DNA of 10,626 nt from a virus. Taxonomy: Duplodnaviria; Heunggongvirae; Uroviricota; Caudoviricetes. Location of the stretch: IMG/VR virus record IMGVR_UViG_2534681831_000036, positions 1 through 10,626 of that record; one strand, written 5' to 3'. The notes beneath the pieces were generated by a model, which was given only the letters and a program-made list of their open reading frames with translations, did no database searches and was not told the origin of the DNA. Below, piece by piece: positions 8,700-8,934 of the stretch (position 1 is the first letter of the stretch; each line of letters begins with the position of its first letter). Made by a program: the position numbers and the translations under genes.

Positions 8700-8730
8700 T
8701 GTCTCACCCTTTACTGTGATAACTGTTACG

Positions 8731-8763
8731 CACAAAAACAACAGGCATCCCGGAGGATGCCTG
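8731..8763 (-). terminator. intrinsic-terminator-like hairpin immediately upstream of the J RBS
   Basis: Stem CAGGCATCC (8742-8750) / GGATGCCTG (8755-8763), loop CGGA; the minus-strand transcript reads hairpin then UUGUUUUUGUG (plus 8731-8741). Confidence 0.5.
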
Positions 8764-8801
8764 TATCATCACTGAATAAAACTTCTGAATATCTTCACAT
8801 T

Positions 8802-8829
8802 TTTACAAACTGACTGTGGTGCTAATAAT
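8802..8829 (+). promoter_or_regulatory. candidate sigma70-like promoter inside the I-J spacer (speculative)
   Basis: TTTACA (8802-8807), 16-nt spacer, AATAAT (8824-8829), in an AT-rich ORF-free spacer ~75 nt upstream of a plus-strand terminator-like hairpin. Pattern match only. Confidence 0.2.
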
Positions 8830-8902
8830 TTCTCTGCGTTAATGTTTTTTGTCGTGACATAAGAATAATTCCTTACACTTAATCTTCGTAACGCTCCCTC
8901 AG

Positions 8903-8927
8903 TTCCGCAACTCTGCGGGATTTTTTT
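8903..8927 (+). terminator. plus-strand intrinsic-terminator-like hairpin + T7 run inside the I-J spacer
   Basis: Stem CCGCA (8905-8909) / TGCGG (8914-8918), extendable by two pairs, loop ACTC, followed by TTTTTTT (8921-8927). It lies antisense to the tail operon, just downstream of the I stop. Confidence 0.45.
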
Positions 8928-8934
8928 ATTCTTT

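Follow-up and report, generated by a model that had tools for sequence, protein, structure and literature searches.

The spacer between tail genes I and J

The window, meaning the whole stretch of 10,626 nt analysed here, carries a tail operon on its minus strand in which, read directly from the window, the stop codon of I lies at 8937-8935 and the start codon of J at 8699-8697. These positions bear out the 235-nt spacer at 8700-8934 proposed in the original prediction, and the AT-rich composition claimed for it also holds, with a GC fraction of 0.375 for 8700-8899 versus 0.58-0.63 in the flanks. The J annotation in strain 95NR1 falls at the homologous place, and the 5′ leader of J occupies 8700-8730 (minus strand), where a Shine-Dalgarno-like AAGGGUGAG (8703-8711) precedes the ATG at 8699. 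The I-J gap of lambda, first put at roughly 16 bp, is actually 60 nt (I end 15444, J start 15505), and in the window an AT-rich insert of about 170 nt separates the two genes. The gap carries no annotation in the prophage and phage records examined, apart from a hypothetical protein placed there in some phage records. Relative to the closest genome, a single-base homopolymer indel is found in each of the J, I and K reading frames of the window, the three positions being 8522, 9213 and 9913. The window is 100% identical to O111 strain 11128 across a 1.3-kb mosaic block (7700-9006); as this identity extends over the whole block it is not specific to the spacer, and the idea that the spacer is better conserved than its flanks was rejected.

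Consensus scanning yields exactly three features, a plus-strand promoter, a plus-strand terminator and a minus-strand terminator, each of which had been predicted. The sigma-70 promoter (8802-8829, plus strand) is recovered with 10 of 12 matches and consists of a -35 hexamer TTTACA (8802-8807), a 16-nt spacer and a -10 hexamer AATAAT (8824-8829). The plus-strand hairpin is placed at 8901-8922 with a T7 run ending at 8927 (8903-8927 in the prediction), and the minus-strand hairpin at 8764-8741, followed by TGTTTTTGTG (8731-8763 in the prediction). Motif counts are within chance for shuffled sequence, at one promoter versus 0.6 expected and two terminators versus 0.6 ± 1.0 expected; the promoter and terminators are taken as real because they are conserved in 34 distinct homologous spacers and homologous to experimentally detected sRNAs. 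E2348/69 and numerous further alleles have TATAAT as the -10 hexamer, and a -10-like sequence is kept across alleles, while the -35 is variable and is poor in the Sakai (TCCGGC) and L003 types.

The sRNA gene itself, an allele found in O111 strains, extends from 8836 to 8927 on the plus strand, where a covariance model of the family (R1) matches over its full length. It is predicted from the -10 hexamer to start at G8836 and finishes with the final T of the T7 run. For PasB a 5′ end has been reported, which its authors estimated from read coverage (PMC8550237); this end corresponds to about 8850 in the window, some 14 nt downstream of the predicted start. The predicted RNA measures 78-92 nt depending on the 5′ end chosen. 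The intrinsic terminator (8901-8927, plus strand), identified by scan and folding, is a hairpin AGUUCCGCA-ACUC-UGCGGGAUU overlapping the T7 run (8921-8927), with its end 8 nt short of the I stop codon. In other alleles the terminator stem is an invariant CCCGCAG/CUGCGGG with a variable loop. The window allele carries a G to U change in the 5′ arm (CCCUCAG), and as this one mismatch breaks the 7-bp stem of the family, the allele must rely on an alternative inner 9-bp hairpin, as in the predicted fold. The window thus has the hairpin, the U7 run and the position abutting the I stop that mark the family terminator, with the inner 9-bp stem replacing the canonical 7-bp one. No covariation was found in the terminator stem across alleles, since the stem does not vary.

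Upstream of the terminator, the most conserved single-stranded stretch is UUAAUCUUC (8879-8887, plus strand), with no or almost no variation within its columns in alignments A2, A3 and A5, and a conserved UCCUU lies at 8870-8874 on the same strand. A PasB seed has been proposed at the position corresponding to UUAAUCUUC (Zhu, Shabalina and Storz 2026 preprint, 10.64898/2026.05.13.724894) and the RIL-seq chimeras of PasB map to its 3′ part, so that UUAAUCUUC is likely the seed of the window RNA as well. An A-rich tract, AUAAGAAUAA (8859-8868, plus strand), contains repeated A-A-N triplets with A positions that are invariant across alleles. Binding of Hfq to A-R-N repeats has been described (PMC4104026), and by this general knowledge of Hfq the tract may bind the distal face of the protein. 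The Hfq-related features visible in the window itself are this tract and the 3′ U-run only.

Relation to PasB and EcOnc22-24

The spacer holds a diverged copy of the PasB-family prophage sRNA gene and is a new allele of an already known family. Model R1 was built from 15 alleles, among them E2348/69 PasB and the Sakai type, with alleles of the window type excluded, and it matches 8836-8927 on the plus strand at full length with 67.2 bits (E=1.5e-11); the runner-up in the window, on the minus strand, scores 10.6 bits (E=0.89). The locus agrees with this sequence and structure homology, as the RNA lies in the I-J spacer on the plus strand and is antisense to a tail operon with I and J on the minus strand. 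Over the RNA body pairwise identity to PasB reaches only 66-72%, and the 83-nt PasB used as a blastn query gives no significant match in the window, which together make the window allele a divergent member. The main reading of the original prediction, an autonomous non-coding unit producing a plus-strand antisense RNA of about 90 nt, is supported by the PasB match, with an R1 E-value of about 1e-11, and in the comparison of I-J spacers across relatives, proposed at the outset, the homologues turn out to include experimentally detected sRNAs. The Rfam search proposed alongside it identified no sRNA family: over the whole window no family reaches its gathering score (AgvB, AsxR, Esr41, STnc100, IsrG and others fall below it) and no PasB family is among the matches, and a permissive scan of 8500-9100 with E up to 10 returns chance-level matches only (BTnc201, archaeal snoRNAs).

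Across alleles, the conserved elements are the 5′ GCGUUA, the U-tract, the A-rich tract, UCC, UUAAUCUUC and the terminator, and this block structure is kept in the 34 distinct spacers. Of 5426 complete E. coli genomes, 1441 contain a match to the spacer, which in 687 of them covers 80% or more of the query, and 69 phage records match as well. The I-J module has a median of 2 and a maximum of 10 copies per genome.

PasB is an 83-nt sRNA of EPEC O127:H6 E2348/69, encoded in prophage PP6 (Pearl Mizrahi et al. 2021, PMC8550237). Its size, Hfq dependence and partners in trans have been established by others: PasB is confirmed by Northern blot and RNA-seq, is Hfq-dependent and has 37 RIL-seq interactions (PMC8550237 Table S6), with log2 changes of -6.8 and -2.4 in the hfq deletion strain. 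Its partners include ler, perB, bfpB, bfpI, ftsZ and glk, and its baseMean is 482-1082 versus 5-15 for the flanking tail genes. The gene is located at NC_011601.1 1466343-1466261 on the minus strand, between I (end 1466255) and J (start 1466496), both on the plus strand, and since the PasB Northern probe is the operon-sense sequence of the terminator beside the I stop, PasB is antisense to the operon. The same probe matches the window at 19 of 23 bases, counted by hand.

The window allele therefore shares with PasB its place between I and J, its antisense orientation and a terminator with a T7 run beside the I stop. The region of the promoter and CRP-like box is 89% identical, the whole-spacer alignment shows 87% column identity, and the blocks follow the same order of GCGUUA, U-tract, A-rich tract, UCCUU, UU(A/G)AUCUUC and terminator. 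The window allele differs in its shorter terminator loop, in the outer stem broken by the G to U change and in the divergence of the RNA body; given this divergence of the body, its targets may differ. The published survey of PasB required a word size of 28 and more than 75% query coverage, by which the window allele would have escaped its count. The parts of the PasB literature searched report only a few nucleotide differences and describe the gene as largely absent from EHEC and EPEC; they contain no mention of EcOnc22-24, a promoter or CRP.

The EcOnc22, EcOnc23 and EcOnc24 RNAs of EHEC O157:H7 Sakai are assigned to prophages Sp15 (Stx1), Sp14 and Sp11 (Tree et al. 2014, PMC4104026 Table S2), and EcOnc22 gives a Northern band of about 85 nt, has an Hfq-CRAC peak and is destabilised without hfq (PMC4104026). 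The three Sakai I-J spacers are mutually identical and align with the window over their full extent. The coordinates of that paper run about 128-146 nt below NC_002695.2, an inferred offset measured at one anchor (AgvB1), and once the genome versions are reconciled in this way, the Hfq peaks of EcOnc22-24 are contained, on the strand antisense to the operon, within the homologous RNA of Sp15, Sp14 and Sp11. In Sp15 this RNA is placed at about 2902836-2902926 (plus strand, NC_002695.2). Uncorrected, the EcOnc22 coordinates would fall on the complement of the pre-J hairpin (plus strand), a placement that was rejected because of the offset seen at AgvB1. The three RNAs thus very probably map to the I-J spacer RNA, an assignment that depends on the inferred offset. 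PasB and EcOnc22-24 appear to be allelic forms of a single locus, a link not found in the parts of the literature searched. The EcOnc RNAs are Hfq-bound and come from spacers homologous to that of the window; they differ from the window RNA in a body of 66-74% identity and in their poor -35.

The CRP-like box

Immediately upstream of the promoter lies TCTGA-ATATCT-TCACA (TCTGAATATCTTCACA, 8784-8799), which agrees with TGTGA-N6-TCACA at 9 of 10 core positions and so has the sequence expected of a cAMP-CRP site. It is the sole match with one mismatch or fewer in the 10.6-kb window, and its half-sites are unchanged in 34 of 34 distinct spacers, which were picked without reference to the motif; only the N6 varies. 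The centre of the box, 8791.5, corresponds to about -44.5 when counted from the predicted start (8836) and to about -58.5 when counted from the PasB-homologous 5′ end (~8850). The canonical CRP centres are -41.5 for class II promoters and -61.5, -71.5 and so on for class I promoters, and neither distance coincides with a canonical activating position. Among other regulators weighed for the conserved box, FNR (TTGAT-N4-ATCAA) agrees at only 6 of 10 positions, judged by eye, and Cra and other LacI-family proteins are unlikely because the box is without a central CG. CRP fits best of these but is not proven, and its binding at 8784-8799 is predicted from the motif. PasB is more abundant in static overnight cultures in LB than in DMEM at mid-log phase, a difference that suits stationary-phase control equally well. 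The invariance of the box was not found described in the parts of the literature searched.

Proposed action of the unit and competing readings

The explanation that we consider highly probable as a whole is that a PasB-family sRNA moron of about 170 nt sits between the I stop and an older pre-J hairpin and works as follows. In the lysogen, with the tail operon silent, host RNA polymerase would start at the sigma-70 promoter on the plus strand and transcribe from about 8836 to the terminator; the product would measure about 80-92 nt. Like its homologue PasB, it would be expected to bind Hfq and pair in trans with many host and virulence mRNAs. Pairing would probably involve the single-stranded region from UCCUU to UUAAUCUUC, and Hfq would probably contact the A-rich tract and the 3′ U-run. 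A regulator acting at the invariant CRP-like box would tune transcription and could couple expression to carbon status. The minus-strand hairpin (8731-8764) would predate the sRNA module and be read through by Q-modified polymerase in lytic growth. The anatomy and conservation of the unit and its membership in the family are established by the present analysis; expression of the window allele, its own targets and control by CRP are extrapolated from the homologues and the motif.

The sRNA could instead act mainly in cis, pairing with the I-J part of late mRNA, either from its own phage or from a related incoming one, and altering processing or expression of J. Such a role is suggested by full complementarity to the I-J intercistronic late transcript, by the antisense position of the gene inside the tail operon and by the recurrence of the module at this position in several prophages of a single genome. 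It is nevertheless unlikely, as the 5′ end of the sRNA lies at least 135 nt from the J start and does not overlap the J ribosome-binding site, while the 3′ end at 8927 stops short of the I stop codon (8935-8937) and does not overlap the I coding sequence. PasB moreover has many trans partners in RIL-seq, and the RNA body diverges by about 30% between alleles, which would make cross-targeting of other prophages imperfect.

Another reading places the function on the minus strand, where an operon-sense RNA ending at 8731-8764, or translation of a 21-codon ORF controlling read-through, would set the amount of J. The original prediction likewise considered a minus-strand RNA or an attenuator of J. 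The element concerned is a strong operon-sense terminator-like hairpin, ACAGGCAUCC-UCCG-GGAUGCCUGU followed by UGUUUUUGUG (8731-8764, minus strand), located about 30 nt upstream of the J start and directly before its ribosome-binding site. Of the cells compared across 10 alleles, 98% are paired, and one pair changes between CG, UA and UG, a compensatory change in keeping with this reading; the covariation scores are equalled by 57 of 500 shuffles and are not significant. All alleles of about 235-260 nt have an ATG ORF that crosses the hairpin, and the minus strand has weak sRNA-like matches to Rfam BTnc201 (E=0.68) and to R1 (E=0.89). Against these points, the scan detected no minus-strand promoter in 8500-9100, and the hairpin-spanning ORF has no Shine-Dalgarno, varies in length (14-28 aa) and at its C-terminus, and has a conserved N-terminus that mirrors the hairpin. 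Lambda carries CCGCC-UGCG-GGCGG followed by UUUU at the same place, a GC-rich operon-sense hairpin and U-run just upstream of the J ribosome-binding site that differs from the window in hairpin sequence, in its gap of 60 nt versus 235 and in the lack of an sRNA module. As lambda has the equivalent hairpin in its 60-nt gap, the hairpin is probably not part of the inserted unit but an ancestral element of the I-J junction. The searched parts of the EPEC and EHEC data sets contain no operon-sense RNA from the gap. Control of J from the minus strand is accordingly judged improbable, and a minus-strand sRNA was rejected for want of a promoter and with an R1 score of only 10.6 bits there.

That the spacer encodes an overlooked short protein is very improbable. 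Contrary to the claim that no ORF exceeds about 12 codons, the spacer contains a 21-codon minus-strand ATG ORF (8769-8704; 22 codons from GTG at 8772) and an 18-codon plus-strand ATG ORF (8757-8813) in addition to a 12-codon minus-strand ORF (8860-8822) with AAGGA 9 nt upstream of its start, and a hypothetical protein is annotated in the I-J gap of some phage records. When all spacer ORFs of at least 8 codons were followed across alleles as candidates for a missed short gene, none was conserved: the 18- and 21-codon ORFs both cross the palindromic hairpin, are not conserved in length and do not look coding, and the 12-codon ORF changes from ATG to ATA in the L016 and L019 alleles and loses both start and frame in the E2348/69 type. 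A 62-codon ORF in alleles of about 343 nt has no PHROG family match. The incorrect ORF-free claim and the incorrect lambda spacing leave the main conclusion unchanged. Hardly credible, finally, is a non-functional recombination scar with chance promoter and terminator matches, as the motif counts alone would allow, given the block structure kept in 34 distinct spacers, the experimentally detected transcripts of homologues and the R1 match.

The inserted unit also resembles the lambdoid morons, extra genes with their own promoter and terminator between late genes (Juhala et al. 2000, as cited in PMC4104026). Like these, the window has a compositionally distinct extra segment between adjacent late genes (235 nt versus 60 nt in lambda), an AT-rich insert with its own promoter and terminator, and its homologue PasB is expressed while the flanking late genes are silent. 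Unlike protein-coding morons read in the direction of the operon, it has no conserved ORF, carries a non-coding RNA as cargo and is transcribed against the operon; the unit is thus moron-like in its working, but non-coding and inverted. The EHEC anti-sRNAs AgvB and AsxR (RF02702, RF02703) are also short Hfq-binding RNAs of lambdoid prophages in pathogenic E. coli. They differ in a locus downstream of PR′ near Q/stx, in a length of 51-60 nt and in an unrelated sequence, and identity of the spacer RNA with either was rejected on locus and sequence.

In terms of annotation, an unannotated gap is found to hold the gene of a validated Hfq-dependent sRNA family, whose EPEC member PasB contacts virulence regulators (ler, perB, bfp genes). 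More tentatively, the I-J spacer might be a fixed docking site of one multi-allele sRNA family comprising PasB, EcOnc22-24 and the O111 allele, in which promoter, CRP-like box, 5′ end, Hfq scaffold and terminator are shared and only the target cores show divergence, of about 30%. A host would then gain a distinct, possibly carbon-responsive regulon from each prophage, and the antisense RNA might also act on late tail transcripts of related phages. If so, about one in four complete E. coli genomes would carry a single family uniting PasB and EcOnc22-24, frequently in more than one copy, many members of which a blastn survey at word size 28 misses, and the combination of shared regulation with differing pairing regions would provide a natural series for target change in prophage sRNAs. 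The invariant CRP-like box offers a testable hypothesis for what switches these sRNAs on. Regarding host range, a box-pattern scan of species-representative genomes gave 88 matches, about the chance number, and when R1 was applied to 80 of those 88 loci, the only ones it confirmed were in Escherichia albertii and in two very small contigs, the latter probably contaminants.

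Identity of the predicted RNA in the I-J spacer

The window comes from a lambdoid E. coli prophage and represents its tail region, the tail operon lying on the minus strand. The nearest complete genomes are those of 95NR1, 95JB1 and 8B (O111:H8-type), with 99.8% identity across 7600-10000. The original prediction placed an autonomous non-coding transcription unit within the late operon, in a large and AT-rich spacer between I and J. The spacer indeed spans 235 nt (8700-8934), as set by the J start at 8699 and the I stop at 8937-8935 (both minus strand), with a GC content of 0.375 (8700-8899) versus 0.58-0.63 on both flanks. 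The observation was essentially right except in two respects: the I-J gap of lambda is 60 nt rather than about 16 bp, and the spacer, described as ORF-free, holds ATG ORFs of 21 codons (8769-8704, minus strand) and 18 codons (8757-8813, plus strand). A consensus scan yields exactly the three signals listed earlier, namely a plus-strand promoter (TTTACA-16-AATAAT, 8802-8829), a plus-strand hairpin (8901-8922) followed by a T7 run ending at 8927, and a minus-strand hairpin before J (8764-8741) followed by TGTTTTTGTG. As promoter and terminator counts alone do not exceed the level of shuffled sequence, the case depends on comparison across sequences.

The PasB sRNA of EPEC E2348/69 is encoded in prophage PP6 (NC_011601.1 1466343-1466261, minus strand, 83 nt) and is flanked by E2348C_1436 and E2348C_1437 (Pearl Mizrahi et al. 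2021, PMC8550237 Table S6). In the RefSeq record these are a tail assembly protein ending at 1466255 and J, starting at 1466496, both on the plus strand. The PasB Northern probe AATCCCGCAGTGATCGCGGAGCT is the operon-sense sequence of the hairpin adjoining the I stop, which makes PasB antisense to the tail operon and places it on the counterpart of the window plus strand. An end-to-end alignment of the two spacers gives a column identity of 87%. Family membership was tested without help from the flanks by a covariance model of 15 alleles, among them E2348/69 PasB and the Sakai type, whose identity to the window RNA is below about 72%. The model aligns along its entire length to 8836-8927 (plus strand) with 67.2 bits (E=1.5e-11), and the runner-up scores 10.6 bits. 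The PasB locus and this match support the predicted non-coding unit and, judged by sequence, the window carries a new, divergent member of the known PasB sRNA family, which very probably also includes EcOnc22-24. Rfam yields no match for the whole window at gathering score and, for 8500-9100 at E up to 10, nothing above chance level. The family model also strongly matches a 3.4-kb contig of Streptomyces flavalbus (L133, 92.7 bits) and a 460-bp contig of Parendozoicomonas haliclonae (L112, 88.6 bits), most simply explained as E. coli prophage DNA contaminating unrelated assemblies.

Spread, divergence and the EcOnc RNAs

Of 5426 complete E. coli genomes, 1441 contain a match to a 341-nt spacer query, 687 of them at 80% query coverage or more, with a median of 2 and a maximum of 10 copies per genome. 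It also matches 69 phage records, mostly of Stx1a- and Stx2c-converting phages, with no annotation beneath the match. The window allele occurs at 99% identity or above in 44 records, the best 30 of which are all 100% identical and largely from O111 strains. The spacer is 100% identical to that of a second prophage of O111 strain 11128, within a 1.3-kb identical mosaic block, so that this match carries nothing specific to the spacer. Retrieval of 80 viral contigs via the J N-terminus gave 72 spacers including that of the window (34 distinct), with lengths of 234-260 nt or about 340 nt and conserved blocks in the same order in every allele. On the window plus strand, an invariant TCTGA-N6-TCACA box comes first, followed by a -35 that varies between alleles and a -10, which most alleles have as TATAAT or AATAAT and two types as TATCAT and GATAAA. 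Further along come GCGTTA, a run of T, a variable segment, an A-rich tract, TCC, TT(A/G)ATCTT, the hairpin CCCGCAG...CTGCGGG with a variable loop, and the T7 run adjoining the I stop. Loci L033, L008, L057, L079 and Sakai Sp11/14/15 (L084-L086) carry a variable number (about 2 to 4) of tandem TCAGACA heptamers in the J leader, immediately before the J ribosome-binding site.

The identity of the window to PasB and to the Sakai type is about 66% across the RNA columns, or 72-74% in pairwise global alignments. It reaches 89% to E2348/69 in the promoter and box segment and 90-94% in the flanking I and J ends. The 83-nt PasB as blastn query finds no significant match in the window. The PasB survey of the 2026 Pas sRNA preprint required query coverage above 75% at a word size of 28, settings under which the window and Sakai alleles would be missed. 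The preprint describes PasB variants differing by a few nucleotides only, which may result from this stringency. Evidence that the published PasB distribution is an underestimate goes beyond the literature searched.

EcOnc22, EcOnc23 and EcOnc24 are mutual homologues in the Sakai prophages Sp15 (Stx1), Sp14 and Sp11 (Tree et al. 2014, PMC4104026 Table S2), and EcOnc22 gives a Northern band of about 85 nt and loses stability in the absence of hfq (PMC4104026). Placed uncorrected on NC_002695.2, all three peaks lie 22-84 nt from the J start, at the same place in each prophage. In the older genome version of PMC4104026, the AgvB1 peak is at 1941783-1941835, and its sequence is currently numbered 1941920-1941981, which sets the offset at about +128 to +146. 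Once corrected, the EcOnc peaks lie on the antisense strand at about 150-225 nt from the J start, within the Sakai counterpart of the window RNA, and from this single anchor we infer that EcOnc22-24 are alleles of the PasB locus. Taken as a second anchor, EcOnc04 near ECs_2189 does not discriminate. The connection is made nowhere in the literature searched: Table S6 of PMC8550237 gives no EHEC homologue of PasB, a review gives the targets of EcOnc22 as unknown, and EcOnc is absent from the 2026 preprint. Uniting PasB and EcOnc22-24 in one multi-allele family is likewise new relative to that literature.

Predicted expression and control of the sRNA

By homology with PasB, the unit is most likely an autonomous prophage-expressed sRNA gene. 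PasB shows an EPEC baseMean of 482-1082 versus 5-15 for the flanking tail genes, and deletion of hfq lowers its level by log2 6.8 and 2.4. Its 37 RIL-seq interactions include ler, perB, bfpB, bfpI, ftsZ, galE, glk and the tolC 5′ UTR, with the chimeras located in the 3′ part of PasB. The window -10 hexamer predicts a start at G8836 and a 92-nt RNA, and the counterpart of the coverage-based PasB 5′ end lies at about 8850, giving a 78-nt RNA. In the predicted fold of the window RNA (MFE -20.2 kcal/mol, z = -2.7) the terminator hairpin has 9 bp, the terminator being the sole structure common to all alleles and lacking a covariation signal because its stem is invariant. In the window allele the 5′ arm of the family stem has U in place of G, and an inner stem is used instead. 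An A-A-N tract (8859-8868), UCCUU (8870-8874) and UUAAUCUUC (8879-8887), all on the plus strand and conserved across alleles, are natural candidates for Hfq contact and seed in the window allele, and the 2026 preprint also places the PasB seed right before the terminator.

The box TCTGAATATCTTCACA (8784-8799) agrees with 9 of the 10 CRP core positions and is the single window site with at most one mismatch to it (0.35 expected per 10.6 kb). Its half-sites are invariant and N6 alone varies in all 34 distinct spacers, the pattern expected for the site of a dimeric protein, and the box is more conserved than the adjacent -35. PasB levels in overnight static LB exceed those in mid-log DMEM, which is compatible with activation by cAMP-CRP and also with stationary-phase control. 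The box centre, at about -44.5 from the predicted start and -58.5 from the reported 5′ end, is canonical in neither case, which counts against a simple CRP model. CRP control of the sRNA promoter via the predicted box is considered slightly less likely than not, and the invariant CRP-like box itself goes beyond the literature searched.

The I-J junction and other features of the window

The 60-nt lambda gap (15445-15504; 1246-1305 of the lambda locus L089) contains the operon-sense hairpin CCGCCTGCGGGCGG (CCGCC-UGCG-GGCGG) followed by UUUU (TTTT in DNA), just before the J ribosome-binding site and in the same place as the window hairpin before J. The lambda element resembles a terminator within the late operon. 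Given this equivalent, 8731-8764 is read as a putative ancestral I-J junction element, with the insertion proper at about 8765-8934. In lambda late transcription, Q-modified polymerase reads through terminators, and the hairpin at 8731-8764 would be passed by such a polymerase. In all short alleles 98% of the hairpin cells are paired, with one compensatory pair that is not significant versus shuffles. A role of this hairpin as an attenuator, or as part of a minus-strand sRNA, is possible but unsupported, since the consensus scan of 8500-9100 detects no minus-strand promoter and the ORF spanning the hairpin varies from 14 to 28 aa across alleles and has no Shine-Dalgarno sequence.

The commonest longer alleles (about 343 nt; L006, L016, L019 and related loci) have about 190 nt in place of this hairpin, between the conserved box and J, comprising two hairpins with U-runs in operon sense and, in the same orientation, a conserved ORF of 62 codons (MPLPVLTNRIIGGHERKPRYLLIPGFLFSMAEMCFMLFGRRISDFCTEWQVAVNLFRGRLYG) with a stop that overlaps the start of J. 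The ORF has no PHROG family match and may encode a small membrane-protein moron beside the sRNA gene. A short 'hypothetical protein' annotated on the operon strand of the spacer in phages PhiR12_1 (L090, 1216-1314) and 1720a-02 overlaps the sRNA promoter and gene and is probably a gene-caller artefact.

Compared with 95NR1, the window tail genes carry single-base homopolymer indels that each shift the frame: an extra G at 8522 (G4 instead of G3, also absent from O111 strain 11128) splits J into 95-aa and 1106-aa ORFs, a missing A at 9213 splits I into 146-aa and 102-aa ORFs, and an extra A at 9913 shifts the frame of the C40 peptidase K. These indels are either sequencing errors or signs of a decaying tail module. 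The gene for the tail fibre N-terminal domain is about 180-200 nt shorter than in 95NR1 at a short repeated sequence (window about 3616-3635 versus 4339-4516 of the 95NR1 locus L002), apparently because this repetitive gene varies in length. An ORF for a PphA-like phosphatase occupies 277-936 (minus strand). The 328-aa ORF at 1665-2651 (minus strand) corresponds to two nleC (peptidase M85) fragments of 95NR1, split there by IS1203, and the window thus appears to carry this type III effector gene intact, without the IS element.
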